From Escherichia phage vB_EcoS_VAH1, in the sequence record MK373792.1: DNA of 64,000 nt. One strand, written 5' to 3'. The position numbers and the translations under genes are program-made. The notes beneath the pieces were generated by a model. That model saw nothing but the letters and a program-made list of their open reading frames with translations, was not told where the DNA came from and made no database searches. The number at the start of each line of letters is the position of its first letter. The first letter of the stretch is position 1. This document shows, piece after piece, positions 14,732 through 55,800 of the stretch.

Positions 14732-16544
14732 ATTAATTGAGAATTGCAAAGGTCTGCTCACTCTAACTGCGGATAAGGACTTACAGCATAATAATGCTAA
14801 TAAGCCTAGTGAGATGTTCCATACTCAAAGAGACTTATTAGCTGGGGAAATTAACAAGTATTTAGTATCGCAAGAATTACCTAAACACCTGTTAGACGCA
14901 CATAATCTAGGTAAAATACACATTCATGACATGGACTACAGAGCACAAGGGTACACCAACTGTTGCTTAGTAGATCTAGGCGGTATGCTGAAAAATGGCA
15001 CTAAAATTGGTAACGCAAATATTGAAACTCCTAAATCCATAACTACTGCATGCGCGATTACTGCTCAGATTATTGCTCAAGTATCGGGTGCTCAGTATGG
15101 TGGCACTTCTATTGATCGTATCGATGAGGTTTTAGCCCCCTATGTCAGAAAGTCTTATGATAAGCACCTGGGTCGTGGTCTACGTTGGCTCAAGGATGAA
15201 AGGAAAGCTGCTGTATATGCTACTGAACTTACTGAAAAAGAGTGTTATGATGCATTCCAAGCCCTAGAGTATGAAACTAATTCATTATTTAACTCTAACG
15301 GACAGACTCCTTTTGTTACGCTTGGCTTTGGGCTAGGACAGGGGTGGGAGGAAAGGATGATTCAGAAAGCCATCCTCCAAAACCGTATTAAAGGTTTAGG
15401 TGCTGCTGAGTCAACCCCTATCTTCCCTAAACTAGTATTCTCAGTTAAAGAAGGGTTAAATAAAAATCCAGGCGATCCTAACTATGATATAAAACAGCTA
15501 GCACTTGAGTGTTCTGCTACCCGTATGTACCCGGACTATTTAAGTTACGAGAAAGTTGTAGCTGTTACTGGTGATTTTAAAGCACCTATGGGTTGTCGTA
15601 GTTTTTTATCCGCTATTCCTTCTGGGGAAACTGCCGGCCGTAATAATCTGGGTGTAGTGTCTATTAATCTACCTATGGTTGCTGCTGAGGCAGATGGGGT
15701 TTTTGAAGATTTCTGGGATATTCTGGACAAATATGTGGATGAGGCTTTTGAAGCTCATGATTTTTTCTTGGATAGACTTAAGAAAGTGAAGGCTAAACAA
15801 GCCCCTATTCTTTATATGCACGGTGGTTTTGGTGTGCGTTTAGATGGGGAAGAGTATGTATGGCCAATTTTTGAGGGTAGATCTTCTGTATCTCTTGGGT
15901 ATATTGGGGTCTATGAGATGTGCCAAATAATGTTTAGTTTACCGCAGACTCATAGGGACTGTATTGAATTTACAGAGGAAGTTCTTACTCACCTAAAAAA
16001 TCGTTGCGAAGTTAAAGCTAATGAGACTAATCTTGGGTTTAGCTTGTATGCTACTCCTAGTGAGTCTCTATGTAATCGCTTTAATAAACTACTGGAACGT
16101 AGGTTCCCTGAGTATTCTTGGCTAACAGATAAAGGCTATCTCACTAATAGTCATCATTTGGACGTAAGGGAGAAGGTAGCTCCGGATACTAAATTTGAGT
16201 ATGAAGCTCATTTCACCAAAATAGCTAATGGTGGTAATATATCGTTTGTGGAACTACCACAAATGAAAAAGTTCCATAAAGCTCTTGAATACGTAGTAGA
16301 TAAGGGATTAGAATGTAGCCATTATATTGGTGTTAATATACCAATTGATGAGTGCTTCAACTGTGGGTATATGGGTGAATCTGTTGCCTCTGAACGTGGG
16401 TTTGTATGTCCAAGTTGTGGGTCTGAAGAAATAGAGGTTACACGTAGGGTTTGCGGGTACCTGGGATCCCCGGGCAGTAGGCCTTTCAATTCTGGGAAAC
16501 AAAAAGAAGTGCTTGGTAGAGTAAAACACTTAAATCTTAAGTAA
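14718..16544 (+). CDS. nrdD: Anaerobic ribonucleoside-triphosphate reductase
   Basis: 608 aa; C-terminal glycyl-radical motif TRRVCGYLG and a Cys-rich zinc ribbon (CFNCGY...CPSCGS). Confidence 0.9.
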   Translation: MTENELIENCKGLLTLTADKDLQHNNANKPSEMFHTQRDLLAGEINKYLVSQELPKHLLDAHNLGKIHIHDMDYRAQGYTNCCLVDLGGMLKNGTKIGNANIETPKSITTACAITAQIIAQVSGAQYGGTSIDRIDEVLAPYVRKSYDKHLGRGLRWLKDERKAAVYATELTEKECYDAFQALEYETNSLFNSNGQTPFVTLGFGLGQGWEERMIQKAILQNRIKGLGAAESTPIFPKLVFSVKEGLNKNPGDPNYDIKQLALECSATRMYPDYLSYEKVVAVTGDFKAPMGCRSFLSAIPSGETAGRNNLGVVSINLPMVAAEADGVFEDFWDILDKYVDEAFEAHDFFLDRLKKVKAKQAPILYMHGGFGVRLDGEEYVWPIFEGRSSVSLGYIGVYEMCQIMFSLPQTHRDCIEFTEEVLTHLKNRCEVKANETNLGFSLYATPSESLCNRFNKLLERRFPEYSWLTDKGYLTNSHHLDVREKVAPDTKFEYEAHFTKIANGGNISFVELPQMKKFHKALEYVVDKGLECSHYIGVNIPIDECFNCGYMGESVASERGFVCPSCGSEEIEVTRRVCGYLGSPGSRPFNSGKQKEVLGRVKHLNLK

Positions 16545-19601: not shown

Positions 19602-20054
19602 ATGTCATTCACACAGCAAGAACTTTTAGATAACTTCCGATATGAAGATGGTAAGTTATTTAGAACTACAGGAAGAAATGCAGGGAAAGAATGTTGTGTC
19701 TCTACTGGTAACGGATATTATCGTATATCTCTAGGGAATAGGACTATGCTTCGGCATAGAGCAATATTTTTAATGCATCATGGATACTTACCTGATTTAG
19801 TAGATCATGTGAATACTGTAAAAGGTGATGATCGTATTGAAAATCTTAGAGAGCAGACAGTATCCGGTAATCTAAGAAATATCAAATATAAGAAAGGAAT
19901 GCATGTTTACCCTTCTGGTAGTAATAACTGGCAAGTAGTATTTACTATTAACCGTAAACGTATAGTTAAAGGAACATATGACAACTATGAGGTTGCATGT
20001 TCTATGGCCAAGATGTTTAGAGGTCAACTATACGGTAGGGAATCAATCCAGTAA
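19602..20054 (+). CDS. HNH homing endonuclease (HNH_3/AP2-like)
   Basis: Start moved to the ATG at 19602 (GGAGGT ribosome-binding site); HNH region RHRAIFLMHHGYLPDLVDHVN. Confidence 0.8.
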   Translation: MSFTQQELLDNFRYEDGKLFRTTGRNAGKECCVSTGNGYYRISLGNRTMLRHRAIFLMHHGYLPDLVDHVNTVKGDDRIENLREQTVSGNLRNIKYKKGMHVYPSGSNNWQVVFTINRKRIVKGTYDNYEVACSMAKMFRGQLYGRESIQ

Positions 20055-24174: not shown

Positions 24175-24203
24175 TTGCTTTACGATGAATTTTTCTGTAT
24201 AAT
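24175..24203 (+). promoter_or_regulatory. PN25-like strong early promoter
   Basis: TTGCTTTACGATGAATTTTTCTGTATAATAGATTCATAAATTTGAGAGAGGAGTT; matches the T5 N25 promoter as I recall it. Confidence 0.7.
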
Positions 24204-24234
24204 AGATTCATAAATTTGAGAGAGGAGTTTAAAT

Positions 24235-24939
24235 ATGGCTGGTTCTCGCAGAAAGAAACATATCCATGAAATCCCGGATGAAGTCTTTAAAAAAGTTATA
24301 GAGCATCTGGAGAACGGTGGTACTAAGAAAGCAGCATGTGAAATGCTCGGCGTATCATCCAACCCAACTATGGAAAGGATGATAGAAGAGTGGCAAGACC
24401 GCCAGATCCAAGTTGCCGAGATGAAGAAAAAGAAACGTGGTACACTCATTGAAGGTATTGAGTTGGCCAACGTTATTGAACAGTATCTATCTGGTGATTC
24501 TTTTGAAGAGATTGCCGATCGTAATTACCGCTCTGTAGCAATGGTTAAATCTGTTCTGGAACGCTATGGTGCTCTGCTTCGTTTGAACGATATTGTAGAT
24601 CCATTGAATCCACCAATTATTCCTGATGATGCTGTAGCAGAAGAATTTGAGGTAGGTGAGCTTGTTTGGGTTCCTGGATACCAGTGTATCGGTGAAATCA
24701 AAAAAGCAATGGATAACCCTGTTGGTTGTTACCGTGTATGGCTTCTATCAGAAGGCAAACAACAGAATGTTCATTATATGAATTATGAATTAGCTTCTGT
24801 AAAGCATTTGGAAAAGCTAGGGGTAGACGTAAAATCTCTGGGGTATAAATGGTCCCGGGAAGAAGTTATCACACTGATTAACGAAGCTGTTAAGGCCGCC
24901 TTGAAACTTGATAAAGAAAAAGGAAAACGCCGTGAGTAG
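24235..24939 (+). CDS. Putative DNA-binding regulator with two helix-turn-helix-like segments
   Basis: 234 aa directly downstream of the PN25-like promoter; helix-turn-helix-like TKKAACEMLGVSSNPTMERMI and SFEEIADRNYRSVAMVKSVLERYG. Confidence 0.55.
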   Translation: MAGSRRKKHIHEIPDEVFKKVIEHLENGGTKKAACEMLGVSSNPTMERMIEEWQDRQIQVAEMKKKKRGTLIEGIELANVIEQYLSGDSFEEIADRNYRSVAMVKSVLERYGALLRLNDIVDPLNPPIIPDDAVAEEFEVGELVWVPGYQCIGEIKKAMDNPVGCYRVWLLSEGKQQNVHYMNYELASVKHLEKLGVDVKSLGYKWSREEVITLINEAVKAALKLDKEKGKRRE

Positions 24940-25183
24940 ACTAACTGATTTACTTAAAGATGGGGAAGTAAAAACACTATATCGTAGAAGCTGGGATAAC
25001 GATAATAACGGCTTAGTGTTACTAACTTTAGATGCTGACTCAGATGTAGCTACTCAGCATACCTGGGTAGCCGGTAACTATCCATATAGCGAGGTTGTTT
25101 CATTAACAGTATGCGAAGCTATTGCAGACGATTGGGAGGTTGCCAGCATCGATGATATGCTTGCTGTTGGCCTGGTGGAGTAA
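24932..25183 (+). CDS. Hypothetical protein
   Basis: Track ORF 24908..25183; more likely start is the GTG at about 24932 with AAGGAA ribosome-binding site. Confidence 0.4.
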   Translation: MSRLTDLLKDGEVKTLYRRSWDNDNNGLVLLTLDADSDVATQHTWVAGNYPYSEVVSLTVCEAIADDWEVASIDDMLAVGLVE

Positions 25184-25200
25184 CTACTTAAAAATTTCAG

Positions 25201-25229
25201 TTGCTTAATCCTACAATTCTTGATATAAT
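25201..25229 (+). promoter_or_regulatory. Sigma70 promoter (TTGCTT-N17-TATAAT)
   Basis: Consensus hexamers upstream of the gene at 25287. Confidence 0.55.
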
Positions 25230-25286
25230 ATTCTCATAGTTTGAAAGAACTATTCTGTTTAATTCTTAATTAAGGAAATATAAAAT

Positions 25287-25697
25287 ATGACTACTCCAAC
25301 TCAGTGGACTGATGAACTATTCGAAAAAATGTCTTCCGAATACGTTGCTCGTATGGAGCAATTCCCAGAGGATGAACGTCCGAATGTTAGCATGGAAATT
25401 GTTAGCGAAATTGCCCAGGAAAATGGTGTAACTCCGAACGGTTTTCGTATGAAGCTGACTAAAGCAGGTTTGTATATCAAGAAAGCTGCTGGCTCTGCTT
25501 CTAAATCTAGCGCATCTACTGGAGAAAAAGCTTCCGGTGGTTCTCGTACCTCCAAAGCTCAAGCCCATGCCGACCTTCGTTCAGCTTTCTCTGATGCTGG
25601 CTTAGCACCAGATTTTCTGGATGATGCAATTATCGACAAACTGACCGGTAAAGCGGCTGCTCATCTGGCAGAAGCAATCCGAGCTATCACTAAGTAA
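25287..25697 (+). CDS. Hypothetical protein
   Basis: 136-aa ORF with AAGGAAA ribosome-binding site; preferred-codon usage. Confidence 0.6.
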   Translation: MTTPTQWTDELFEKMSSEYVARMEQFPEDERPNVSMEIVSEIAQENGVTPNGFRMKLTKAGLYIKKAAGSASKSSASTGEKASGGSRTSKAQAHADLRSAFSDAGLAPDFLDDAIIDKLTGKAAAHLAEAIRAITK

Positions 25698-25734
25698 TAT
25701 TTAGATAAATCCACCAACAAAAGGAACTATAGCT

Positions 25735-26031
25735 ATGACTAAAGCTGAAATTATTGCACAGTGCGAAAAATTTGGTGAGTTTTATCTTCATTACGAGAAA
25801 CTTCGTCAGAAAGGAACCACGTACCTTCAGGGTACAATGGAATTTGATCCGGCCCAAGATAAATATCTGGCTGAGCGTATTAAACGTGAACGTATTCGTA
25901 AAGCGAAAGATGATGAAATCCTTGTCTTCTCTCGTACTAATGATAGCTTCCGTTTTATTCCTGTCGAGAAAGTTCGTCGTGTGACTAGCCTCCAATCAGA
26001 GTTAGATCGTGCTTCTCCAGTAGGCCGATAA
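25735..26031 (+). CDS. Hypothetical protein
   Basis: 98-aa ORF with AAGGAA ribosome-binding site. Confidence 0.55.
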   Translation: MTKAEIIAQCEKFGEFYLHYEKLRQKGTTYLQGTMEFDPAQDKYLAERIKRERIRKAKDDEILVFSRTNDSFRFIPVEKVRRVTSLQSELDRASPVGR

Positions 26032-26041
26032 GAAAACAATT

Positions 26042-26063
26042 AGCCCCTATATGGGGCTTTTTG
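26042..26063 (+). terminator. Rho-independent terminator
   Basis: Stem AGCCCC/GGGGCT with TATAT loop, followed by TTTTT. Confidence 0.6.
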
Positions 26064-26081
26064 TGTATTTGGGATATGTAA

Positions 26082-26390
26082 ATGAGCGAACAGGTAAATC
26101 AAAACTATGAAGGACACGTTGATGACCAGTCCATCATACTTTGGGAGAAGGAGGGAGAACAAGTAAGATTAACAGTATCTGAATTTCGTGGGAATCTATA
26201 CATGGGTATTCGTTACTGGCTTCTTGATATTAATGATGAATGGTTTCCAACGAAATCTGGCTTCTCTTTTCCTTACACCCTAGAAACAACATCACAGCTT
26301 TTCTATGCGTTTACACAGATTCTTAGCGAATCTGAGGTTTTACATGAAGTACAGAAACGAGCTGAAGAACTCAAAGCCAAGAATGCCTAG
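26082..26390 (+). CDS. PC4-like ssDNA-binding protein
   Basis: 102 aa; VRLTVSEFRGNLYMGIRYWLLD...PTKSGFSF resembles the PC4/Sub1 fold. Confidence 0.65.
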   Translation: MSEQVNQNYEGHVDDQSIILWEKEGEQVRLTVSEFRGNLYMGIRYWLLDINDEWFPTKSGFSFPYTLETTSQLFYAFTQILSESEVLHEVQKRAEELKAKNA

Positions 26391-26407
26391 TTCTTGGCTT
26401 TTTCTTT
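26376..26407 (+). terminator. Rho-independent terminator overlapping the gene 3' end
   Basis: Stem GCCAAGAA/TTCTTGGC followed by TTTTTCTTT. Confidence 0.55.
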
Positions 26408-26417
26408 ATAAATGTAT

Positions 26418-26446
26418 TTGCTTTCAACTCAGTTTTGTTATATAAT
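26418..26446 (+). promoter_or_regulatory. Sigma70 promoter (TTGCTT-N17-TATAAT) for the ligase N-terminal ORF
   Basis: Consensus hexamers about 30 nt upstream of the ATG at 26478. Confidence 0.6.
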
Positions 26447-26477
26447 ATTTATATAAATTAATGAGAGATATAAATAA

Positions 26478-26747
26478 ATGACCAATGTAAAAGAATTTAT
26501 TAAACGCTGTCAAGAAGCATATTATCAAGGTATGTCTTTAATCTCTGATGAGGAATATGATTGCCTAGTAAAACGCTTCCCGTTAGAGGAAGAGATCGGG
26601 CCTAAGGGTGATATTCCACATCTGTATCGTATGTATTCTTTACAGAAAGTTTACTATAACCGTGGAGATAAACCACCATTCAATCCTTTAGGTCAGGTGG
26701 AAACCGATAAGTTAGATGGTTGTGCAATTTCTCTGCTATATATTTAA
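26478..26747 (+). CDS. lig: NAD-dependent DNA ligase, N-terminal fragment (ends just after the KxDG adenylation motif)
   Basis: 89 aa ending ...KLDGCAISLLYI*; the ligase continues in another frame from about 26746. Confidence 0.7.
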   Translation: MTNVKEFIKRCQEAYYQGMSLISDEEYDCLVKRFPLEEEIGPKGDIPHLYRMYSLQKVYYNRGDKPPFNPLGQVETDKLDGCAISLLYI

Positions 26748-27303
26748 TGGCGAATTTGTTCAAGCACTAACTCGTGGTAATGGTATTCTGGGGAATGATG
26801 TCACAAGCAACGTAAGATTGCTGAACATCCCTAAAAAGATTTCCCAAAAAGTACCTACTCAAATCACTGGTGAAGTTCTAATTACAAAAGAAGTAGAAAA
26901 TAAACGTAACTTTGCCTCTGGTGCTATTAACCTCAAAGATAGTGATGCTTTTGTACAACGTATCGGGGAAGGTGGTTTAATCTTCGTTGCATACGGTATC
27001 CAGTGTTCTGCTGAATCTGTAGGTATTACAGAAGCGTATTTAAAAGATATGCTTTGGCTAGAGAATGAGAACTTCTTAACAGTTGTTATGTGCGTTCCTC
27101 CTTTAAAATGGATTCCGACGGACGGTAAAGTTGTTCGTATTAATGACAACAACAAATTCTTCCGGGAAGGCTGGACTAATAAATTCCCTCGTGGGGCATT
27201 CGCTATTAAAGAGGATGAAGAAGGCGAGATTACAACTCTTACTAAAGTTGAATGGCAGGTAGGGGCTTCTGGTAAAGTTCCAGTTGGTTATTTCGAACCG
27301 TAA
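26716..27303 (+). CDS. lig: NAD-dependent DNA ligase, adenylation-domain fragment
   Basis: Frame contains NGEFVQALTRGNG... directly continuing the KLDG motif of the previous ORF; ends at tandem TAA TAA. Confidence 0.7.
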   Translation: MVVQFLCYIFNGEFVQALTRGNGILGNDVTSNVRLLNIPKKISQKVPTQITGEVLITKEVENKRNFASGAINLKDSDAFVQRIGEGGLIFVAYGIQCSAESVGITEAYLKDMLWLENENFLTVVMCVPPLKWIPTDGKVVRINDNNKFFREGWTNKFPRGAFAIKEDEEGEITTLTKVEWQVGASGKVPVGYFEP

Positions 27304-27306
27304 TAA

Positions 27307-27453
27307 TTGATTGATGCCACAATTGTTAAAGCGACTCTTAATAACGTTGATTATATTAACTCTCTCGATCTAGAGATCGGTTGCCAGATTCGAGTGATTC
27401 GTGCTGGTGGTGTAATCCCGTGCATAGTAGAGCGAGTATACGATTATACATAA
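27307..27453 (+). pseudogene. lig: NAD-dependent DNA ligase OB-fold segment lacking its own start
   Basis: Same frame as the previous fragment, right after TAA TAA; encodes [13 protein letters not shown]...[16 protein letters not shown] (compare ligase ATLHN...RAGDVIP). Confidence 0.5.
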
Positions 27454-27585
27454 CCCTTTGCTACCCATCTACCGTATCGGAATTATGGTTATTGACATTT
27501 CGCCGCTTAGGTATATATACTATTATCATTCAGTTGAGGGATAGAAAGTTATGGCGAGGGTAAGCAAAGTTAGTTAAAATTGTAG

Positions 27586-27614
27586 TTGCTAAATGCTTAA
27601 ATACTTGCTATAAT
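27586..27614 (+). promoter_or_regulatory. Sigma70 promoter (TTGCTA-N17-TATAAT) for the ligase C-terminal ORF
   Basis: Consensus hexamers in the 190-bp gap between the ligase parts. Confidence 0.6.
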
Positions 27615-27644
27615 ATTTATATAAATTGATAAGGAAGAAATTTG

Positions 27645-28424
27645 ATGAAAATCGAAATTCCAACACAATGTCCCTCTTGTGGTTCTAAGCTAGATCTTGT
27701 CAACGGACAATTATTCTGTCGTAATAAGTCCAACTGTCCAGCGCAATCAAGTAAGTTAATTGAGAACTTCTGTACAAAAATGAAGTTAAAGGGCTTTGGC
27801 CCGAAAACTATTGAGAAGCTGGAGCTGACGAAGATTTCAGAACTATTTTACCTAACCGAAGAAGATTTGGTTAGAGCAGTGGGTAGCAAGGTTGCCGCTA
27901 AATTAATTAGCGAATTAAATACTAAAGTTCGCGGAGACATTGACTTTGGTTCAGTTCTCGGTTCTTTAGGAATCCCTCTAATTGGAGAGGTTGCAGCAAA
28001 GAAATTATCCCAAAATTGCACTAGCTTCCACGATGTGAAGGCTGACGGCAAGGCTGGAGAAAACTATAAAGCCTGGCTAAATTCCCCACAAGGCAAGGAT
28101 GTTATCGAATTACCGTGGAAATTCACAACTGGTGTTAAAGGTGCTAAAGCTGAGGTCATCATTACTGATGGTCTAGTAGCCCAACCAAACGGAATAACGG
28201 TATGTATTACCGGATCTTTGCAAGATTTTGCAAATAGAACGGATGCAACAAACTATCTAGAAGGTCTAGGGTATACTGTTAAAAAATCAGTTACCAAAGA
28301 CGTTAAATACCTAATCTGTGAGGATGAATCTAAGCGTTCTTCCTCATCTTATAAGAAAGCCGAAACGAATGGGATAGAAATCCTGTCGATTAAAGAACTA
28401 TTGGAGAAAAATAATAATGTCTAA
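27645..28424 (+). CDS. lig: NAD-dependent DNA ligase, C-terminal part (Zn finger, HhH, BRCT)
   Basis: Track ORF 27642..28424; ATG at 27645 with AAGGAAG ribosome-binding site; CPSCGS...C...C zinc finger and BRCT-like C-terminus. Confidence 0.75.
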   Translation: MKIEIPTQCPSCGSKLDLVNGQLFCRNKSNCPAQSSKLIENFCTKMKLKGFGPKTIEKLELTKISELFYLTEEDLVRAVGSKVAAKLISELNTKVRGDIDFGSVLGSLGIPLIGEVAAKKLSQNCTSFHDVKADGKAGENYKAWLNSPQGKDVIELPWKFTTGVKGAKAEVIITDGLVAQPNGITVCITGSLQDFANRTDATNYLEGLGYTVKKSVTKDVKYLICEDESKRSSSSYKKAETNGIEILSIKELLEKNNNV

Positions 28425-29184
28425 ACTGAACTGGAACGTAGAAGGTGTAACCGAGTCTCTGAAAGCAAAAGCCACTGCTCTGGGTGTTGCTGTAATCTCT
28501 CAAGAACAAGTAGCTGCTATCGCTGCTGAACTGGCTGCTGAGACTGGCAAAGACGTTACCGCTCGCTCTGTTGGCTCTAAGCTGCGTAAAGAAGGTTTCG
28601 AAGTACAGAAAGCTAACGAAGTACAGAAATCTCCGTGGACTCCTGAGCAGGAAGCTGAACTGGTTGATTTCCTGAACGCTCATGCTGGTCAGTATACCTA
28701 TGCTGAAATCGCTGCTGCTGTAGCTGGTGGTCAGTTCGGTGCTAAACAGGTACAGGGTAAGATCCTGAGTCTGGAAATGACCGCTTCTGTTAAACCAACC
28801 GAAAAAGCTGCTGCTGTTCGTTCCTTCACTCCGGATGAAGAAACTGATTTTGTTAATCAGGTTGTTGCTGGGGCTACTATTGAAGCTATCGCTGCTCACT
28901 TCGGTCGTAATATCAAACAGATCCGTGGTAAAGCTCTGAGTCTGCTTCGTGAAGGTCGTATCGCTGCTATGCCGGTACAGGAAACTTCAAGTGCTAAAAC
29001 TCGTGAAGATCTGCTAGAAGGTCTGGATCTGGTTAACATGACCGTTGCTGAGATCGCTGAGAAAACTGGTAAATCTGAGCGCGGTGTTAAATCTATGCTG
29101 TCTCGTCGTGGTCTGGTTGCTAAGGACTATGATGGTGCCGCTAAGCGTGCTAAACTGGATGCAAAAGCTGCGGCTGCTGAATAA
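28417..29184 (+). CDS. Abundant DNA-binding-like protein with three internal helix-turn-helix-like repeats
   Basis: 255 aa; repeated modules (YAEIAAAVAGG...KQVQGKILSL; IEAIAAHFGRNIKQIRGKALSL; VAEIAEKTGKSERGVKSMLSRRG); strongly preferred codons. Confidence 0.55.
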   Translation: MSKLNWNVEGVTESLKAKATALGVAVISQEQVAAIAAELAAETGKDVTARSVGSKLRKEGFEVQKANEVQKSPWTPEQEAELVDFLNAHAGQYTYAEIAAAVAGGQFGAKQVQGKILSLEMTASVKPTEKAAAVRSFTPDEETDFVNQVVAGATIEAIAAHFGRNIKQIRGKALSLLREGRIAAMPVQETSSAKTREDLLEGLDLVNMTVAEIAEKTGKSERGVKSMLSRRGLVAKDYDGAAKRAKLDAKAAAAE

Positions 29185-29235: not shown

Positions 29236-30739
29236 ATTTAGAAGGCACGAAAGCGTGCAAAGGAGAATGACCTTGTTTAACGTGCAAGCTGTAGTGTTGA
29301 AGATGCTTCTAGCTTCCGAACAGAAGCAAATAGCATTGGAAACATTCTCAAAACTGCATAAAGATCATTTTAATGACGCTTTCTCCTCAATTTACCAAGC
29401 CGTCCAGAATTATTATAAAAAATATAACACAATGCCGTCCATTGACGCACTTATGCTTGAAGCTAATAGGAACGCCCGCCTTTCTCAAGCTCTAGTCGTC
29501 TTAGCTAACACTCAAATTCCAGAAGTGAGCATGGAACAGGCACTTGAAGTCCTAGAGGCCGAATATACACAGGATTTATTCCTGAAGCTTCTAGAAACAG
29601 ACGTGCTTCAAGATTTAACAATGCTGGATCAGGGAGAAATTCTCAACCGAGTTGCCTCCCTTCACTTAAAATTAGAAGAGAAAGTAACGAATACTGGAAA
29701 AGTATTCAACGCAGATAACATGCGTATTTTCCAGAGAGAAGAAGATACCAAACTGAACTTAATCGCTCTTGGTATTTGTAATGAGTTCGACGCTCAAATC
29801 GGTTTAGCTCGCACAGAAACGTTACTGCTTGGTGGTTGGCGTGGTACTGGTAAATCCATTATCTGTTCAAACATACAGGTTCAGCAATATTTGAATGGGG
29901 ATATTGCTCCATACTTCTCAATTGAGATGAAAGAACATGAAGTATTTAGACGTAATCTAGCCATGTTAGCTGGTGTATCAGCATTAGCAATGCGTAATAA
30001 TACTCTAGAAGGTGCAGCTCTGTTGAGATTAGCCAGAACTAGAGCTAGAATGTTTAATGGTGGTGAAGAGCTTTTCGACAACTTCGTTAAACAGTATACA
30101 ATGGCTAAGATGAGTGATTTCTACGATATGGAGAGTAAGCTAATAGAGGGATATGAACTACATACTCCTATGATTATCGTTTATGACCCTGAACTGTCCA
30201 TTACAACAGTTGACGTAGAATTAAATAAATTAGTTGCTAGATATGGTGATAAAGTTACAGTAGCTCTACTTGACTATATTAACCAAACCCGACTTCCAGA
30301 CTCTAAAACCATTGATATGTATGACTGGAAAGAACAGATGGTTGTTAGCTCGTCTTTCAAATCTATCTGCCAGAAACATAACGTGGCTGGTGTAGCTCCT
30401 TACCAGATCGATCAAGATGGTAGAACACGTATGTCAAAGGGTATTCTTGATTCCGCAGATATGGCTGCTAATCTTAATGCTGCAAAAGCTGATAATGGTC
30501 AAGGTGCTATTATGTTTGACTTCGTTAAGACTCGTTCTTCTGATAGCGTGAAGTTTATGCCTAAAATGAACTGGGAAACCTTGCGGATGGATAACACTAC
30601 CAACCTAGCAATGGAAGATATATCTCAAATGGAAGCTGAGTTCATTATCCCTATTGAGAAGGATAAGCCGGCTCAACCTAAACGTGCTAAGAAAGACAAA
30701 ACTGAAAATTCAACAGGTGAACAGGCCAGCGATATATGA
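29216..30739 (+). CDS. DnaB/RecA-like P-loop ATPase, putative replicative helicase
   Basis: 507-aa frame; Walker A GGWRGTGKS; true start uncertain because 29216 is inside the terminator hairpin (alternatives near 29267-29273). Confidence 0.55.
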   Translation: MLLPLFAFRRHESVQRRMTLFNVQAVVLKMLLASEQKQIALETFSKLHKDHFNDAFSSIYQAVQNYYKKYNTMPSIDALMLEANRNARLSQALVVLANTQIPEVSMEQALEVLEAEYTQDLFLKLLETDVLQDLTMLDQGEILNRVASLHLKLEEKVTNTGKVFNADNMRIFQREEDTKLNLIALGICNEFDAQIGLARTETLLLGGWRGTGKSIICSNIQVQQYLNGDIAPYFSIEMKEHEVFRRNLAMLAGVSALAMRNNTLEGAALLRLARTRARMFNGGEELFDNFVKQYTMAKMSDFYDMESKLIEGYELHTPMIIVYDPELSITTVDVELNKLVARYGDKVTVALLDYINQTRLPDSKTIDMYDWKEQMVVSSSFKSICQKHNVAGVAPYQIDQDGRTRMSKGILDSADMAANLNAAKADNGQGAIMFDFVKTRSSDSVKFMPKMNWETLRMDNTTNLAMEDISQMEAEFIIPIEKDKPAQPKRAKKDKTENSTGEQASDI

Positions 30740-31269
30740 TAACACAGGAAAGGCTAAAAGAGTTATTTGATTACTCCCCAGGAACTGGGGAGTTTACTAG
30801 AAAAGTATCTAGAGGTAATCAGAAAGCTGGTAGTATAGCTGGTTCTTTAAGAAAAGATGATTATATATGTATATGGGTAGATGGAAAGCCTTACTATGCG
30901 CATCAACTAGCTTTTCTCTATATGGAAGGTTATTTACCTGAAGAAGTAGACCATATAAACCGTATACGAAGTGATAATCGTTGGGTTAACCTTAAAGATT
31001 CTTCTCACCAAGAGAATAGCAGGAATAAAGCAGCTAAAAGTAAATCAGGGTATATAGGAGTTAGTTGGAATAAACAAAGGCAAAAATGGCAAGTTCAACT
31101 AAGAGATACCAATAAAAAGAAAATATTCGGTGGATATTTTGAGTACCAGAATTTAGAATCAGCCGTAGATAAGATTAATAAGCTACGATTACAATTTCAT
31201 GGGGAAAATGCTATTCAAGAAATATTCGACCCGTCTAATTATCCTGCATTAGAGGAGATAAATTCATGA
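30736..31269 (+). CDS. HNH homing endonuclease (HNH_3 + AP2)
   Basis: 177 aa; N-terminus MITQERLKEL shared with the ORF at 38324; HQLAFLYMEGYLPEEVDHINR. Confidence 0.8.
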   Translation: MITQERLKELFDYSPGTGEFTRKVSRGNQKAGSIAGSLRKDDYICIWVDGKPYYAHQLAFLYMEGYLPEEVDHINRIRSDNRWVNLKDSSHQENSRNKAAKSKSGYIGVSWNKQRQKWQVQLRDTNKKKIFGGYFEYQNLESAVDKINKLRLQFHGENAIQEIFDPSNYPALEEINS

Positions 31270-32182: not shown

Positions 32183-32512
32183 ATGGAATATGTATATATT
32201 TATGCGGATGTTCCAGTGTATGATAGTATAACACACAAAGAGGTTAAACTAGAGCGGTTTACAACACTGGAGTCCCTTAATAAACGAAAGAATTTCCATT
32301 TATTTGGTGATCCTAAATTACCTGCATCTTATATTTACTTTAAAGTAAAAGATACAGGTCAAGAGGTATACCTAACATATGATTGGGCTGTTGTAGAAAA
32401 TACTGAGCAATCTATGAAAGCGCTAGATGCTTTTCTGCGTATAGATGAAGAATTTCGGGTACTAGAAAAGCAGCGCAATGAAATGCGTAAATTACTACAT
32501 ACCTATAAATAG
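32183..32512 (+). CDS. Hypothetical protein
   Basis: 109-aa ORF with GAGGAG ribosome-binding site. Confidence 0.55.
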   Translation: MEYVYIYADVPVYDSITHKEVKLERFTTLESLNKRKNFHLFGDPKLPASYIYFKVKDTGQEVYLTYDWAVVENTEQSMKALDAFLRIDEEFRVLEKQRNEMRKLLHTYK

Positions 32513-35375: not shown

Positions 35376-35663
35376 ATGTTGTCTCAATTAGTTGGGTCAA
35401 AGCGTAGCCAATTTATAGATTCTGATGGAAATCTTATTAACTGGAAGAAAACTACGTTCTATGATGTTGTCACCTCTAAAGTTTTGCATTCAGCTAGAAT
35501 TTATAACGGAAAATACCAATGCTATGTAGCTAAAGTTCCATATCCATTTGTATTATCCTATGTTCCAGCTTATATAAGCTATATTCTGGTAAATAATAGC
35601 CCTGTTATTTATCAAGTCCATCAAGAGGAGCCTGAAATTCCTAGACTTAGAATAAAATTATGA
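35376..35663 (+). CDS. Hypothetical protein (start uncertain)
   Basis: Track ORF 35166..35663 begins over the terminator; the internal ATG at about 35376 has a GAGGT ribosome-binding site. Confidence 0.3.
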   Translation: MLSQLVGSKRSQFIDSDGNLINWKKTTFYDVVTSKVLHSARIYNGKYQCYVAKVPYPFVLSYVPAYISYILVNNSPVIYQVHQEEPEIPRLRIKL

Positions 35664-35812
35664 AGGTTGTTATATCTAATAAAGCCTATTTCAAGCCCGA
35701 TGATGAACTTTGGGATTATTGTAGTAAGCAAACCACTTATCACATAGAGACAATGACTAGTAAATACCCTATTATGTATAAGAATAGTGGTGTTGTTGCC
35801 CAAAGAGATTAA
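35660..35812 (+). CDS. DExH-box helicase, N-terminal fragment (about 50 aa; absent from the ORF track)
   Basis: ATG overlaps the upstream stop (ATGA); MKVVISNKAYFKPDDELWDYCSKQTTYHIETMTSKYPIMYKNSGVVAQRD*; the frame shifts at a GCCC run into the next fragment. Confidence 0.4.
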   Translation: MKVVISNKAYFKPDDELWDYCSKQTTYHIETMTSKYPIMYKNSGVVAQRD

Positions 35813-36239
35813 GTGGATTCCTATTACGCGTCTGGACTTATTAGATGCTAAAGGAATAAAATACGAATTAGTCGATAAACGCACATTAGCTCCAGTAGAT
35901 ATACCAAAACCTGAGTTCAAGCTGCGTGAAGAAGACCAGCTCCCAATATATAAAGAGTGTGATGATACCTGTATTATTAATGGTAAGCCTGGATTTGGTA
36001 AAACTATCCTAGCCCTTGCACTTGCGTATAAATTTGGCCAGAAAACTTTGGTAATCTGTACAAATACATCCATACGTGAAATGTGGGCGGCAGAAGTTCG
36101 TAAATGGTTTGGGTTTGAACCAGGCATCATAGGTTCTGGGAAGTACAATATTGATCCACCAATTGTAGTCAGCAATATTCAAACAGTAAATAAACATGCG
36201 AATAATCTTTCTAAAGTATTCGGTACTGTTTATAGTTGA
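35787..36239 (+). CDS. SF2 DExH-box helicase (D10-like), fragment with motif I
   Basis: No ribosome-binding site at the track start; Walker A GKPGFGKT; ends ...KVFGTVYS* at a GTTT run. Confidence 0.7.
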   Translation: MVLLPKEIKWIPITRLDLLDAKGIKYELVDKRTLAPVDIPKPEFKLREEDQLPIYKECDDTCIINGKPGFGKTILALALAYKFGQKTLVICTNTSIREMWAAEVRKWFGFEPGIIGSGKYNIDPPIVVSNIQTVNKHANNLSKVFGTVYS

Positions 36240-37014
36240 TGAAGTTCACCATTGTGTGGCTACAACTTTCACTAATTTCCTAGAAATATCATGTGCTCGC
36301 TATAAAATTGGACTATCCGGTACACTAAAACGAAAAGATGGTTTACAAGTTATGTTCAAAGATTTCTTTGGATATAAGATATTTAGCCCGCCGGTTAATA
36401 ATACTGTTGCACCTACAATCCATAGGTACTCCGTGCCTGTTGAGCTATCAGGAAACCAAAACGTGCCGTGGGCATTACGTGCTAACGATGTGTATAATCA
36501 TCCTGAATATCGAGAGACTATTATAAACCTAGCACATTTATATGTGAATATGGGGCATAAAGTACTCATTGTAAGTGATAGAACAGAGTTAATCCAAACA
36601 GTACTAGAAGCTCTTACGCAGCGGGGTGTTACAACATATGAAATTATAGGGGCAACCCACTTAGATGACCGATTAAAAATTCAGGAAGATATAGCAAAAG
36701 GTGGGCCTTGTGTACTTGCAGCAGCTCAAAGTATCTTCTCTGAAGGTATTTCTCTTAATGAGCTATCTTGTTTAATAATGGGAAGCCTCATTAATAATGA
36801 ATCTCTCATTGAACAGCTTGCAGGCCGTGTTCAACGTATTGTCGATGGTAAACTCGACCCTATTGTTGTAGATCTAATTATGAAAGGTGGCACTGGACTA
36901 AGACAGGCTTCTGGACGTATGGCAGTATATCGTAACAACGGGTGGAAAACTATTACTATGACCCCGGAGAAAGCAGTTCAATTAGCTAAAATTGCATTTG
37001 GCAACAGCTCATAA
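36196..37014 (+). CDS. SF2 DExH-box helicase (D10-like), fragment with motifs II-VI
   Basis: Begins ...FIVDEVHH (motif II), then SGT (motif III) and QLAGRVQR (motif VI); frame is +1 relative to the previous fragment. Confidence 0.7.
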   Translation: MRIIFLKYSVLFIVDEVHHCVATTFTNFLEISCARYKIGLSGTLKRKDGLQVMFKDFFGYKIFSPPVNNTVAPTIHRYSVPVELSGNQNVPWALRANDVYNHPEYRETIINLAHLYVNMGHKVLIVSDRTELIQTVLEALTQRGVTTYEIIGATHLDDRLKIQEDIAKGGPCVLAAAQSIFSEGISLNELSCLIMGSLINNESLIEQLAGRVQRIVDGKLDPIVVDLIMKGGTGLRQASGRMAVYRNNGWKTITMTPEKAVQLAKIAFGNSS

Positions 37015-37026: not shown

Positions 37027-37099
37027 ATATACATAAATTTGAGAGAGAGAAAGTTTCGGATTGATAAGAAAGTCCGAAGCAGAAAAATAAAAATTTTAG

Positions 37100-38318: not shown

Positions 38319-38323
38319 AACCA

Positions 38324-38800
38324 ATGATTACACAAGAGCGATTAAAAGAGCTGTTAGATTATAATCCTGAGACTGGAGTATTTACCTGGAAAGTATCTCG
38401 TGGTAGAGTTTCAAAAGGATCTGTAGCTGGAACAGCAGTATCAGTAGGGAATAGGTACACCCGCTGGGAGATTCGAGTTGAAGGAAAAAGATATAAGGCG
38501 CATCAGTTAGCATTTCTATACGTTCATGGTTATATTCCACCTGAGATTGATCATGAAGATAGGAATCCATTGAATAATGCAATACTTAACCTAATAGACT
38601 CTTCAAAGTCTCGTAATCAATTAAATAAGAATAAAAACTTCGGTAAAGAAACACCAAAAGGAGTCTTTGTAAAAGCCTCTACTGGAAGATACTTCGTACA
38701 GATTCAAGGAAAGCACTACGGCTACTTTGATGACGTAGAACAGGCCAGAACTGTTGCTAATGAGGTATATGATAGGTTGTTAAATGAGAATACTGTTTAG
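38324..38800 (+). CDS. HNH homing endonuclease (paralog of 30736..31269)
   Basis: 158 aa; MITQERLKELLDY...HQLAFLYVHGYIPPEIDHEDRN. Confidence 0.8.
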   Translation: MITQERLKELLDYNPETGVFTWKVSRGRVSKGSVAGTAVSVGNRYTRWEIRVEGKRYKAHQLAFLYVHGYIPPEIDHEDRNPLNNAILNLIDSSKSRNQLNKNKNFGKETPKGVFVKASTGRYFVQIQGKHYGYFDDVEQARTVANEVYDRLLNENTV

Positions 38801-43654: not shown

Positions 43655-46600
43655 CTATACCTTATTTGCTAGTAGAGAATTAACTACTAGGGTTAGGTCT
43701 GCAATTTGCTTTTTAAGATCAGATACTTCTGATTCTAGGGCTGAGATCCTGCTATCAGATTCTCTGCCTGCCTGTACTAATAGACCTGTTATAGCCGCAT
43801 AGTCAACAGAATAGAAACGTTCCTCACCAACTAGTTGCTCACCAGTAAGTGTAGGCCCTTCAAGATCTGTATATTTTGTAAACCCACTTACAGCTTCAGG
43901 TAGAGCTTCCATTACTTCCTGAGCTATAACACCAGCGTAAGGTAGCCCATTTTCCTTAAGGGTATAAGTATAGCCTTTCATTTTACGCAATGATTCAGTG
44001 GCGTTTTGGATTTCCTCAATATTATCCTTCAGATCTCTATCGGATGACTGGGTAATGTTTGTTGCTTCAACTTTTCCATTAACATTAAAAACACGGGATC
44101 CATCAGAGCTTTGCTGAGCATAAAACAAATAACCATCTGATAGCTTACATTCAACAACAGAGGGCCTCCCAGTAGTATTACCCCATAGCAAGATAGTAGC
44201 ACTTTTTGCGGCTGTCTGATTATTTTCGTAACTAAACGTCCTACCATTACCCCGCCGTACAACCACTGCAGATCCATCAGCAAATATACCCCCATTATAA
44301 TTAGGAGTTCTTAATGTGATATTATCGCTTACAGTTAGAGTACTGCTATTCATATCGTTATGTATGATAACATCCTTAGCAGCCCCACCTTTCCCCACAT
44401 ACCACAGTCTACCAGAATCTGTTCTACATGCTAAATAGCCAACTTGAGACGTATCGGTTCCGGTAAGTCTTATCGATAAGGCCTCACCAGCTTTAGTTAT
44501 CGAAACAGGCACACCAAAATCAGCAAATTTATCTGTAATTAATCTGTTCCATGCCCCAATAGTACCACCATCAATACTTCTAGCCCAGAATTTAGATCCA
44601 CGACCTGCAAACTGGGTAGCATAATTACCGCTAAACCCTACATGGATACCACCATATACAACATTGTTTTCCGGAGTATTAACTTGACCAGCAATACCAT
44701 AAAACTTATTGACAGTGTTATGTTGTGTATTCCAGTCTACACCAGTAGAAGATAGAATACCAGAAGGAGCTGAAAAAGTTCCTTCTTTATTGAAGTTAAA
44801 GAATTGATGGTTAATTCCTGCTGGATCTCTAACAATAACCTGACCAGCATTTTCACTAGCTCTAAACTCTGCACCATATATTGTATCTCCCACTCTATAC
44901 CTAGAATAGAAGGTGGCATTAGATACAGATATACCATCAGCAATAACACCATTACCAGCCGCTATAGTACCACTAAAAGTAATCTTAGGAGCATATAAAG
45001 ACAGTTCGTCCCCGACGTTCATACCGTTAGAAAGAACTATACGCTCACCATTTCCTATGTAATAGTTCCCTTCCGTTGTTGCTTGATAGAAACCTATACG
45101 GTTTAAAGAAAAATCAAACATAGTAAGAACATCAGTTGAATCTGTTGCAGGATTAGCGGTCCCCCATGCGTAAGTTGTATTTTTATACGTAAAGTTTGAC
45201 GTTGGTACAGTTACTTCACAGAATGCAGGAACACGTAGCTGAACAGGAAAACCACGGGCCTCAATATAAATTGCAACATATCTTTCAGCATCTTTGGAAG
45301 AAGAAAGAATACATTTCATTGCAATCTCACTTCTCGCATAGTTATTGAAGTACCCGTACCCACCATCTTTACGATCACTCCAGCCCCCGCACCTAATAAA
45401 GCCATTGAAGCTACAACAGTTCATAGGGTCATTGCCAGTAGAGGATCGTGTTTTTATATCAATAAAAGCACCAGAGGCATATAGTGAACGGTAAGCAAGA
45501 TCAATAATGACAGGATAATACTTTCCATCTTCAACACCAGCAGGTGCATTAAGTGTTACCCATTCACCACCACCTATAGAGGGTATCTGGAGGTTATTTT
45601 TTGCTTCTGATATAGAGCGGCCACCGGTACCTCCTTGTCCTACTGCAAGAGGTATATATGATCTATTCTCTATATCATAAGCTCCCCAAAGTTTACCACT
45701 AGTAATAATGATTTTAGCATTATTACCTGGGTTTAACAGTTGGGTCTCAGAGCTAAGCTGTACAAGCCTATTTACATCATCTATTCTAGCATTTTTTGTC
45801 CATAAAGGGCCGCTTTCTGGTCTCCAACGATATGAGTATATTGCTTTAGTGGACGAGCCTACAAATAAGCCTGCAAATGAAGGTACACCATCAGTACCTG
45901 AAATAAATCCTGTAAGAACTGTTTCACCTACTGCTATACTAGGAAAACCTGTAGCCGTTTCATATATTCTTAGAAACCCCAGGAAATTGGAGGGATTACC
46001 AGAAATATCTGGACAATCCCTTGGGGAATCCCCAAGACCGATAGAAGCTTTCATACCAGAAGCTACATTTTCAGCTTTAGTAGCAGATGCCGCCGCATTA
46101 GTTTCTGATGTTTTAGCATTGGTTTCTGATGCTTTAGCAGCATTAGCACTGTTAGCAGCAGCATTTTTACTATTATTAGCATTAGTTTCTGAAGTTTTAG
46201 CCGCAGCAGCCGAAGCACTGGCATTAGTTTCTGATGTTTTAGCTGCTGAAGCAGAAGCAGCCGCAGCAGTTTTGCTACTATTAGCATTGGTTTCTGAGGT
46301 TTTAGCTGCGGTTTCACTAGCCTTTGCTTTAGTTTCTGAAGTTTTAGCAGCAGTTTCACTAGCTTTTGCATTAGTTTCAGAAGTTTTTGCAGCTTTAGCG
46401 CTATTAGCAGAAGCAGTAGCAGAAGAAGCAGACTGAGTTGCAGACTGCTGAGAAGATGCCGCAGAAATTTCTGCTTCATTTTCAGAATCTTTGGCATTTA
46501 GCTCCGACTGTTTTGCATTAATTTCAGATTGCTTAGCTGCTGCAGCAGATGCTTTAGAAGACTCTATAGCAGAGACTAGCTCTCCTGCTGTAATAGAGCT

Positions 46601-46705
46601 GATTGTACTTCCCAGAACTATAGTATATTTAGGATATTTACTTGCAGTTATACTATTCTGGTCCATAGTGACCATTTGCTGTAAAATTATTTTAGTTATA
46701 GCCAT
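43655..46705 (-). CDS. L-shaped tail fibre protein (pb1-like) with C-terminal S74 intramolecular-chaperone domain
   Basis: 1016 aa; Ala/Thr/Ser/Glu-rich N-terminal repeats; C-terminus ...DLKDNIEEIQNATESLRKMKGYTYT... is typical of the auto-cleaving chaperone domain. Confidence 0.75.
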   Translation of the reverse strand: MAITKIILQQMVTMDQNSITASKYPKYTIVLGSTISSITAGELVSAIESSKASAAAAKQSEINAKQSELNAKDSENEAEISAASSQQSATQSASSATASANSAKAAKTSETNAKASETAAKTSETKAKASETAAKTSETNANSSKTAAAASASAAKTSETNASASAAAAKTSETNANNSKNAAANSANAAKASETNAKTSETNAAASATKAENVASGMKASIGLGDSPRDCPDISGNPSNFLGFLRIYETATGFPSIAVGETVLTGFISGTDGVPSFAGLFVGSSTKAIYSYRWRPESGPLWTKNARIDDVNRLVQLSSETQLLNPGNNAKIIITSGKLWGAYDIENRSYIPLAVGQGGTGGRSISEAKNNLQIPSIGGGEWVTLNAPAGVEDGKYYPVIIDLAYRSLYASGAFIDIKTRSSTGNDPMNCCSFNGFIRCGGWSDRKDGGYGYFNNYARSEIAMKCILSSSKDAERYVAIYIEARGFPVQLRVPAFCEVTVPTSNFTYKNTTYAWGTANPATDSTDVLTMFDFSLNRIGFYQATTEGNYYIGNGERIVLSNGMNVGDELSLYAPKITFSGTIAAGNGVIADGISVSNATFYSRYRVGDTIYGAEFRASENAGQVIVRDPAGINHQFFNFNKEGTFSAPSGILSSTGVDWNTQHNTVNKFYGIAGQVNTPENNVVYGGIHVGFSGNYATQFAGRGSKFWARSIDGGTIGAWNRLITDKFADFGVPVSITKAGEALSIRLTGTDTSQVGYLACRTDSGRLWYVGKGGAAKDVIIHNDMNSSTLTVSDNITLRTPNYNGGIFADGSAVVVRRGNGRTFSYENNQTAAKSATILLWGNTTGRPSVVECKLSDGYLFYAQQSSDGSRVFNVNGKVEATNITQSSDRDLKDNIEEIQNATESLRKMKGYTYTLKENGLPYAGVIAQEVMEALPEAVSGFTKYTDLEGPTLTGEQLVGEERFYSVDYAAITGLLVQAGRESDSRISALESEVSDLKKQIADLTLVVNSLLANKV
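46060..46480 (-). repeat. Tandem in-frame nucleotide repeats encoding the (AAKTSETNA)n-like low-complexity region of the tail fibre
   Basis: Repeated GCAGCAGTTTCACTAGC.../TTAGTTTCTGAAGTTTTAGC units; they also generate spurious ORFs on the + strand (45708..46436, 46063..46497). Confidence 0.6.
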
Positions 46706-52805: not shown

Positions 52806-55800
52806 TTAAGAATTACCAAGAGATTTCAGGGTGGTTCCATTCTCATTAAGAGCCAGTTCCACGGCATCTCTGAAAGCAGTACTATTATTCGATGCAAAAT
52901 CTCTGAAGCTTGCTGCATCCATAGTGCTGATATTCAGGATAATAGGTCTACCAGAAGAGGACCTTGATCCTTCGGAAAGCTGATCATTAGGCGTAGCTTT
53001 CATAGGAACCATAGGAGTAATTACCTCGGTACCGTGCTCACCCATTTGATAGCTTACTCCAGGATACATCATACCGCCTTCCGCACGTGGAACAAAGGAG
53101 TTAGCATTACCGATACCTTTATCACCACGTAGATAGGATAATTCTCCTGAGCTAGCCTGCATAGATACATCAACGTTCTTCTGTCGTTCACCTAGGGTTA
53201 AATACTGAGTAGTATCTGCTCCAGAGTCAGCGATAGAAGACATACCAGATGCGGAAGATGCCTGAGCAAGAGCTAGTGCACCTGCCAAACCTGCCGCCAC
53301 CATTAGAGGAATAGAGAACGGATATGGTACAGCTGTTGCTGCTTGCATTACTGCTACTGCTGTCTGAATGATAATCTGTTTCTTAGCTGCATCCTGTTGA
53401 ATTTTAAGCTTTTCAGCTTCTAATTTCTTCAGTTTAGCTTTAGATGCCTCAGATTTACCATCACGCTTCTGTTCTGCGGCAATAGCCTGATCAATTGCAC
53501 TAACCTGCTGACTAGTACTGTATTGAATCATAGAAGCCACAGTTTGCATACCAGAAGCAATCATAGACGTAGTATCTAAAGATCCCTGAGAGAATTGAAT
53601 CATAGCATTAGTTAAATTACCCATGCTTTGAGCCACAGCGGTTGCTTCGGAATTTAATTCAGATAACTTAGAGATCGCCTGGTCATAAGAAGCCATTCTA
53701 TTTTGCATATCAGCAAAATCTTTATCTTCTCCGATTAACCCAGTAGTAGGAGTATAAGTAGCCCCAACAGAAGATCCTACCTGTTGCTGCATTTGACTTT
53801 CTCTCTGCTTTCTGAGTTGCTCTAGAGCAGCAACAGTTTTATAAATCTCATTACGATACTTAAGCTCTTCTTCCGTATTACCCTTAGATAGTTCCAGCTG
53901 TTGCTGCAGAATGGATAGTCTTTCCGTAAGAATTTGGGATTGGCCAGTAACATTTCTTTGTGTTTGGCTGACTTCTAGTGCATCCATGAGAGCTGATACA
54001 TGTGAGGCAGTTGCTTGTTTTTCTGCTTCCCATAGCTCTCTGCTTATTTGTGCTTGCGCACGTCTAGACTGTTCCGCCTCTTTTTGTTTATCTGCCTGTT
54101 TTGTATACCATTCGTACTTCTCTTTCTCTATAGTTAGTTCTAGTTTTAGCTGAGCTAATCTATATTGAGTAGTAGTCATAGTACGGTCATTCAGAAGAGC
54201 TATCTCACGATCTACACCAAGAATTTTATCTGTGTAATCCTTAACCTTCTTCTGAGCTTCCATACCCTGATTGGTAAGTTTAAGTTTCTCCAGCTGAATT
54301 TTTTCAATTTCTTTCTCAACAGCTTTATTTCCCTGGTTTGTTTGAAGAACACGTCGTAAAGCAGCTTCTTGCTCTTCTAACTGTTGCAACTCTAAACGTC
54401 TACCAGCTTCCTGAGCTTTTTCCTTATCCTTAGTTTGATTATACACATCAGCTATTTTCTGTTGAACTGCTAACTGATTTTTAGTTTCATTACCAGTTAG
54501 TTTAACATACTCAGATAGAGCCTGAGAAGCAGTTTTCATCTCAGATAACGTATTATAGCCTAAGTTAAGATTTTTAACGTACTCATCAGCACTTTTACCT
54601 GTTCCTATAGATAGGGACTCTATATTTTTTATAACAGCTACTAAAGTAGCGCTAGTTTTAGCCGCGGTATCTGTACTCTGAGCAACGTTCTGCATATCAT
54701 TAGCTAAGTCACCAGCTGTTTTCTTAGTTTGATTATACGCTTTCTGTTCTTCGGTTAGTCCTTTTAGTACTGCAGAGTTAAAATCATATACAGCACCAGG
54801 ATCAGTAGTATCCCTATGTAGGTTAATCTGTTTTTGGAATTCTGGGTTAGCTTTTGCAGCGGCAGCACCCGCAGCTTGATAGGCTGACTTCCAAGCATTA
54901 AGGTTTTCAGTAGAGTCATCAACTTCTTTGCTTAACCTTGCTATCTGTAGTCCCATAGCTGCGGTTTCCTCTACGAACTTTTTATTAGCTTCGGAAGAAC
55001 CTATGCGCATCCCTCCTACTTCAAATCCCCCAGCAGCTAACCCAACAGGCATTCCCTCACCCACCAACCTAATAGCGGCGGCAGTACTAGCGTCTGCTTG
55101 GGACATTCGTTTATCGAACTCAGATTTTAGCTTATTACGCTTATCAAGGGATTCCCTATACATATCTAGAGCTTTATTATACCCTTCTTCAGAAGCGGCT
55201 AAACTTAAAGCAACAGCACCAACGTTGGTAGGATCTATCTGTCTATTAGTCTTTTCTTGGGCTCTAGCTGCTTCAGCAGATACAGAAGCCTGAGAAGTAT
55301 AGAATACCGTATTGATGGCATCGATTACTGGTCCTAAATACTTAGCAGCAGCCTGCTGAATCTTTCTCAGTGCGGCATCAGCATTAGCGGCAAATTGCTC
55401 CCATGGAGTAGCTCGCAGAACTTCATCTAGATACCCAAAACGTCTGGTAGATTCTGCTATAACAGCATTGGCATACGCCTGCTGTTTCTGGAAAGTAGTA
55501 AGACTATTAATGTTATAAGTTATACCTGTGTTAGCAGCATTTAGCTGTTTAACATAGTCAGCATATGCGTCATTAAGACGAATAGTAACACCAAGTTCAT
55601 CCAGAAGTTCTATTTCCTGTTTTGATACACCCTTGATTACACGATTAAGCGCATCAGTCATATCAACACCAAGAACAGCAGCAGCACGACGAGCTACTAG
55701 ACCAAATTTATTAAGTTGTTCAGCATCAAATCCGTACGCAGAAGCAGAGGATGCTTGTCTCATTGCTTCTTCAAAGGAGATAGCATATCCGGCAGCTTCT

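Follow-up and report, generated by a model that had tools for sequence, protein, structure and literature searches.

We analyzed a stretch of 64,000 nucleotides (the window) of the genome of Escherichia phage vB_EcoS_VAH1 (MK373792.1), which is a T5-like phage (Tequintavirus) and shows 96-97.6% identity with BF23, T5, and many phages of Salmonella and Escherichia. Positions 26478 to 28424 of its forward (+) strand, to which all features of the ligase locus described below belong, are occupied by an ordinary T5-type NAD+-dependent DNA ligase locus made up of two adjacent genes, ligA and ligB. As written in the record, ligB is intact and ligA is distributed over three ORFs instead of one uninterrupted frame of about 323 codons. 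An earlier note, prepared from the sequence alone, had described a ligase encoded in four pieces and had offered a decaying pseudogene, recoding, or homopolymer errors as possible accounts of it. The breaks in ligA do exist; the promoter-containing gap counted among them, in contrast, is the known ligA/ligB split, and the four-piece framing was hence misleading.

The ligA gene is preceded by a putative early promoter (TTGCTT-17-TATAAT, 26418..26446), read from the sequence, whose position matches that of a promoter annotated in T5 directly 5' of ligA; it was missed by a consensus scan, with its -35 hexamer agreeing at 3 of 6 positions. The first piece of ligA (26478..26747) codes for domain Ia and motif I of the adenylation domain, in the form KLDG, and is 98.9% identical to residues 1-89 of T5 LigA (tblastn). 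It ends in ETDKLDGCAISLLYI followed by a TAA created by an inserted T (TT to TTT in TATATTTAA, 26743..26745), which pushes ligA into the +1 frame. The homologous protein resumes in that frame from 26746 (NGEFVQALTRGNG...), inside an ORF spanning 26716..27303. This second piece (26746..27300) comprises the rest of the nucleotidyltransferase domain, with motifs III-V, and the start of the OB-fold; it is recovered by the Pfam model DNA_ligase_aden (PF01653) with E=1e-15, as against 2.2e-23 for T5 LigA itself. The frame then meets the tandem ochre codons TAA TAA at 27301-27306, immediately beyond which the third piece (27307..27453), in the same frame as the second and reading ...ATLNN..., codes for the C-terminal part of the OB-fold (DNA_ligase_OB, PF03120, E=3.2e-11, on 27307-27450). 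Across residues 86-323 of T5 LigA, the downstream part of ligA displays 94% identity interrupted by 2 stops (tblastn). The passage of the protein into the +1 frame after the KxDG motif and its continuation beyond the double stop, both pointed out in the earlier note, are thus confirmed at these coordinates. With respect to the hallmarks of NAD+-dependent ligases, the adenylation domain with its KxDG motif is present (KLDG at the end of the first ORF, together with the PF01653 match), as are the Zn finger, HhH, and BRCT modules, all of them on ligB. As written, the OB fold does not directly follow the adenylation domain in one polypeptide, with TAA TAA lying between them and the Thr of the TPV motif being lost.

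The spacer between the two genes (27454..27644) contains two promoters, P-K28b (TTGACA-18-TATACT, 27492-27521) and P-K28a (TTGCTA-17-TATAAT, 27586-27614), both situated 5' of ligB and identified from the T5 promoter annotation together with a promoter scan. The ligB gene (27645..28424) codes in a single frame for an intact subunit of 259 aa that is 98.5% identical to T5 LigB at the amino acid level. Its BRCT domain is detected by Pfam with E=1.6e-8, its HhH region by HHH_2 with E=3.4e-5, which is below the Pfam cut-off, and a Cys4 finger of the form CPSC...C-x5-C can be read from the sequence. The earlier description of the Zn-finger/HhH/BRCT part as a separate ORF with its own consensus promoter was therefore accurate, the promoter in question being P-K28a.

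In this two-gene layout, domain Ia is encoded by ligA together with the adenylation domain and the OB fold, and the Zn finger, HhH, and BRCT by ligB, whose transcription starts from strong early promoters of its own in the spacer of about 200 nt. The layout is conserved. In the annotation of T5 and BF23, ligA measures 972 nt (323 aa) and ligB 780 nt, with 202 nt between them holding P-K28b and P-K28a, and published papers term the T5 ligase genes subunits A and B (PMC3632103, PMC4319617). We found the intact pair, with a LigA of 323-324 aa and a LigB of 256-259 aa, in all 27 relatives that were fetched (17 aligned and 10 further loci from NCBI, ENA, and Logan), with six phage records besides T5 and BF23 showing the same intact pair. 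The window and these 27 relatives also have in common that the two genes part where the OB fold ends and the Zn finger begins, and that a promoter-bearing spacer of about 200 nt lies between them. With T5 LigA as the tblastn query, at least 80% of the protein was covered in one place in 912 of 915 phage records, which span T5-like phages of Escherichia, Salmonella, Klebsiella, Proteus, Vibrio, and Aeromonas, and all 60 rows sampled from this search presented a single-piece match. The promoter-containing gap is thus no lesion; it is the conserved and already annotated division between ligA and ligB, which has stood in the T5 annotation since the genome was published and is the sole biologically solid part of the fragmentation. 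Literature searches yielded no biochemical characterization of LigA and LigB of T5.

Alignment of the window to T5, BF23, and 17 relatives uncovered ten indels that are private to it. All of them fall within 771 nt (26743-27513); ligA carries seven and the spacer the other three, and none was found in ligB or in 24200-26477. The lesions other than the frameshift and the double stop become visible only upon alignment to T5 and BF23. The first is the frameshifting +T at 26743. It is followed by a compensating pair, -A at 27087 and +A at 27105 with a T>C substitution between them (27087..27108), by which six codons are rewritten from NVRSFF to MCVPPL. Next comes an in-frame deletion of AAC at 27278 (27276..27281), which removes the conserved Thr of GKVTPV, a residue present in the PDB homologue 9hu3. 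A second compensating pair, -G at 27299 and +T at 27311 enclosing a T>A change (27299..27312), converts PVIIDD into P, two stops, and LID, and thereby gives rise to the TAA TAA at 27301-27306. Deletion of an A at 27445 destroys the normal ligA stop and adds 2 codons, and the spacer has lost TAAAG at 27485 and T at 27497 and gained TA at 27512. The frame of ligA is hence disrupted by one +1 shift that remains uncompensated, by two stops, and by the loss of the regular stop codon.

None of this is shared. The alignment check proposed in the earlier note, namely whether T5-like relatives conserve the shift and the double stop, gave a negative answer: the +T site had no gap-free match in any of 453 phage records and was absent from all 17 aligned relatives, and TAA TAA was shared by none of 434 matching phage records. 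The exact strings across the two sites did not occur in IMG/VR, nor did the one across TAA TAA occur in GTDB genomes or JGI metagenomes, and complete E. coli genomes yielded no match at all. Among the relatives, ligA has 238 variable columns and a single indel, which is in frame, and the spacer varies at 5 of 197 columns with zero indels over 17 relatives, as against the three private indels of the window. The surroundings of the cluster are clean on both sides, with the upstream flank (25700-26740) being 99.8% identical to BF23 and ligB with its downstream region (27645-28600) 99.0% identical at the nucleotide level to GEC_vB_N5/N7, both without gaps. Private substitutions in the indel-bearing stretch number about 4-6, such that indels are ahead by about 2:1; their density (5/976 vs 9/3933 in the flanks) is only about 2-fold higher than outside it. 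The changes affect runs of 1-4 bases; neither of the two A5 runs of ligA is altered.

In a comparison of four genomes over about 30 kb, we counted 13 singleton indels in the window, 4 in T5, none in BF23, and 5 in SP15. Eleven of the 13 in the window have lengths not divisible by 3, and most lie within genes; the two T5 singletons that were mapped are intergenic. The window singletons fall into two clusters, one formed by ligA and the spacer and the other by the D10 helicase gene and the promoter region downstream of it. A concentration of at least 9 of the 13 private indels within 771 nt of the approximately 30 kb was not reached in any of 200,000 simulations. The second cluster consists of +C at 35799 (CC to CCC), +T at 36229 (TT to TTT), and +GA at 37041; the first two of these split D10 into three ORFs and part its Walker A motif from the DEVH motif, and the sites at 35799 and 36229 had no counterpart in the 437 and 439 phage records compared, respectively. 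A tblastn survey with about 70 T5 proteins showed that about 60 other shared genes of the window are in a single frame with 93-100% amino acid identity, leaving D10 as the sole exception besides the ligase. A frameshift at 12850 in the T5.097 homologue was considered as a third broken gene and rejected, as the four-genome comparison revealed it to be private to T5 and not to the window. D10 was defined via conditional-lethal amber mutants. Phages escaping Retron-Eco11 differ in what they change: the T5 escapers carried only missense changes in D10, and the T4 escapers had a truncated uvsW (PMC12746101). From this escaper pattern, T5 appears not to tolerate a split D10.

The lesions occur in this record alone, are clustered, and form an odd pattern. 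As they group by position and not by function, and as an apparently indispensable gene, D10, is also hit, we infer that the frameshift and the double stop of ligA are probably sequencing or assembly errors confined to this record and not signals for recoding. Under this proposal, the phage itself would encode a normal LigA of 323 aa. A stretch of about 770 nt across the ligA/spacer boundary would have been poorly determined, for example owing to low coverage or single-pass reads, and the compensating -1/+1 pairs could stem from locally garbled base-calling. Such pairs cannot be put down to selection that maintains the frame, since one of them encloses the two stops. Of the three accounts in the earlier note, sequence error is accordingly the one that fares best, even as its homopolymer form is only a partial description. 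The classic version of that explanation is weakened by the indels lying in runs of 1-4 bases with both A5 runs intact, and as the indels fall outside the longest homopolymers, the errors are not those of textbook 454, Ion Torrent, or nanopore data. One might speculate that a cloning bias led to poor coverage, given that both private clusters adjoin strong T5 promoter pairs that are hard to clone (P28a/b and P31A/B); P-N25 and P-N26 have no comparable indel cluster. The intactness of the approximately 60 other genes, at 93-100% amino acid identity, counts against error, in that the record is not poor overall. A search for an independent assembly by exact protein look-up of LigB, the first ligA piece, D6, the HNH endonuclease, and the primase gave no record, and the D5 protein was found in more distant relatives alone, all of them with an intact ligA.

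A less likely, though still tenable, account takes the lesions as real, with the isolate having recently inactivated ligA as a strain-specific pseudogene, relying on the NAD+ ligase of its host, and ligB being left an orphan. We know of no lig amber mutants, and ligA may be non-essential; as the host has its own LigA and the phage gene may be dispensable, a genuine ligA knockout could be viable. The changes also destroy conserved features, cutting motif I from motifs III-V, removing the Thr of GKVTPV, and placing stops at the Val of EPV; most of them are run-length changes of a kind that polymerase slippage can also produce, and the remainder of the window is clean. Nevertheless, a single lesion would have been enough for inactivation, yet there are ten private indels against the few private substitutions. 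Compensation of two -1/+1 pairs within 12-18 nt is improbable under random decay (P = 0.017 by simulation). Moreover, the cluster spills over into the conserved ligB promoters and yet spares ligB (P = 0.006 by simulation for all 10 indels lying outside it), which would be equally useless without LigA. Relaxed constraint ought to manifest as a raised substitution rate and lesions scattered over the whole useless unit; given the roughly 2-fold substitution density, the approximately 2:1 excess of indels, the compensating pairs, the spared ligB, and the affected spacer, neutral decay fits poorly. The decaying pseudogene of the earlier note is therefore possible, albeit ill-matched to the pattern of lesions. 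This reading has further to contend with the one-place coverage of LigA across Demerecviridae in all but three of the 915 records, and it demands that the triple split of the D10 helicase be true as well, which T5 appears not to tolerate. The wider version of this scenario, in which a viable T5-like phage has lost the catalytic LigA and possibly D10 too while retaining an intact and strongly promoted ligB, strikes us as rather improbable. If it were true, the phage ligase would be dispensable, and LigB would have a function of its own or partner the host enzyme.

Recoding, in which ribosomes would undergo a programmed +1 shift at AUU UAA U and then read through UAA UAA to yield full-length LigA, is effectively excluded. 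It does draw some plausibility from a stop codon that coincides with the point of the shift, an arrangement also seen in prfB, and from the open, homologous frame downstream of it. However, programmed sites are expected to be conserved, and neither the shift site nor the double stop occurs in any of the 453 and 434 related records, respectively. The sequence at the site, CTG CTA TAT ATT TAA T, has no purine-rich Shine-Dalgarno element within 15 nt upstream, nor does the upstream sequence (TTTCTCTGCTATAT) offer any other SD-like stimulator, and tRNA-Ile, once shifted onto UUU, would probably be mismatched at the first position. The tandem ochre codons would act as a strong terminator, and Arg(tct) is the sole tRNA encoded in the window, with the main phage tRNA cluster lying outside it, such that readthrough finds neither a conserved stop nor a suppressor tRNA here. 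The codons between the compensating pairs are, in addition, unlike those of every homologue. A further natural split, with three LigA fragments and LigB together forming a functional ligase, might be suggested by analogy with the annotated two-polypeptide organization of the T5-type enzyme, but it is hardly credible when the break after motif I runs through a single nucleotide-binding fold, the second and third pieces lack both a ribosome-binding site and a plausible start, and the ligA breaks are conserved nowhere.

There is thus nothing new in kind at this locus, and the main value of these observations is one of caution: the frameshift and the double stop, and likewise the breaks in D10, are probable sequence errors and should not be taken for recoding. 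Were the lesions to be confirmed, the phage would constitute a natural knockout demonstrating that the highly conserved LigA is dispensable, a result of modest interest for T5 replication and the biology of nicks.

In relation to known systems, the window agrees with T5 (T5.116/T5.117, AAS77162/AAS77163) and the BF23 orthologues in the order of the PC4-like gene, ligA, spacer, ligB, and D5, and in dividing the domains after the OB fold and before the Zn finger, at a nucleotide identity of 97-97.6%. It differs from them and from other relatives in that their ligA is an uninterrupted 972 nt, whereas that of the window has seven private indels and its spacer three. The prfB-type +1 frameshifting systems have a zero-frame stop at the shift point, as does the window; unlike them, the window has no Shine-Dalgarno stimulator, would allow only poor re-pairing, and has an unconserved site. 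A close homologue with a solved structure is available in PDB 9hu3/9i5i, a stand-alone "DNA ligase (NAD(+))" of 339 aa, for which a paper search on both PDB codes found no publication. It has the length of an A subunit and matches residues 4-323 of T5 LigA with E=8e-104; it keeps the GKVTPVG and VIIDDA segment intact, whereas in the window the Thr is missing and the VI is replaced by the two stops. Finally, bacterial LigA, as exemplified by the E. coli enzyme (PDB 2OWO), has the same domains and motifs, namely domain Ia, the adenylation domain with KxDG, the OB fold, the Cys4 Zn finger, HhH, and BRCT, but unites them in a single polypeptide of 671 aa, whereas the T5 type spreads them over two genes.

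The gene for the D10 branch-migration helicase (35660-37014, + strand), which codes for a 450-aa protein in T5, is broken in the window into three ORFs on the same strand (35660-35803, 35787-36239 and 36196-37014). This fragmentation is due to two single-base insertions, one at 35799 (CC>CCC) and the other at 36229 (TT>TTT), both of which are private, i.e., present in this sequence and absent from the compared relatives; these insertions were also not found in any of the 437 and 439 phage records compared at the respective positions. Shortly 3' of D10, we observed a further private indel, an additional GA at 37041 inside a GAGAGAGA run, which falls where the T5 annotation places the promoter P31A. 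Together with the two insertions in D10, it makes up the second cluster of private indels, that of D10 and its downstream promoter region. Compared with BF23, SP15 and the window, T5 has private single-base indels of its own at ~52707, 63118 and 64586 of the reference AY543070, which could reflect either errors in that reference or strain differences. Through one of them, T5.097 is shortened to 52 aa, its length being 73-80 aa in SP15 and BF23.

The region homologous to the T5 RNAX, a stable RNA of unknown function, lies at 1295-1810 (- strand), adjoining a tRNA-Arg (1105-1179), and differs from T5 in pairwise comparison by seven small indels and ~8% substitutions.

The window also differs from T5 in its set of HNH homing endonucleases. 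HNH-like ORFs are found on the + strand at 19608-20048, 30736-31269 and 38321-38797, the sites being 5' of the origin-binding-protein gene, the D6/primase interval (this ORF showing 65% to hegJ) and the D11/D12 interval, while the window lacks counterparts of T5's hegH and hegI at the positions that these occupy in T5.

The tail-fibre region is divergent from that of T5 (43700-46700 and 52809-56513, - strand): the match to the L-shaped fibre pb1 is limited to its N-terminal 205 aa (73%), Pb2 is 75% identical, and no T5.141 homologue occurs at the corresponding place. This divergence suggests a receptor specificity other than that of T5.

A 109-aa ORF (32183-32512, + strand) flanked by the primase and DNA polymerase genes has counterparts in BF23 (BF23_00138) and SP15, but not in T5. 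Judging from sequence identity, the anaerobic ribonucleotide reductase NrdD (14733-16541, + strand) looks like an exchanged mosaic module: whereas the adjacent phoH and nrdA are 99-100% identical to those of T5, NrdD shows only ~58% identity to its T5 cognate.
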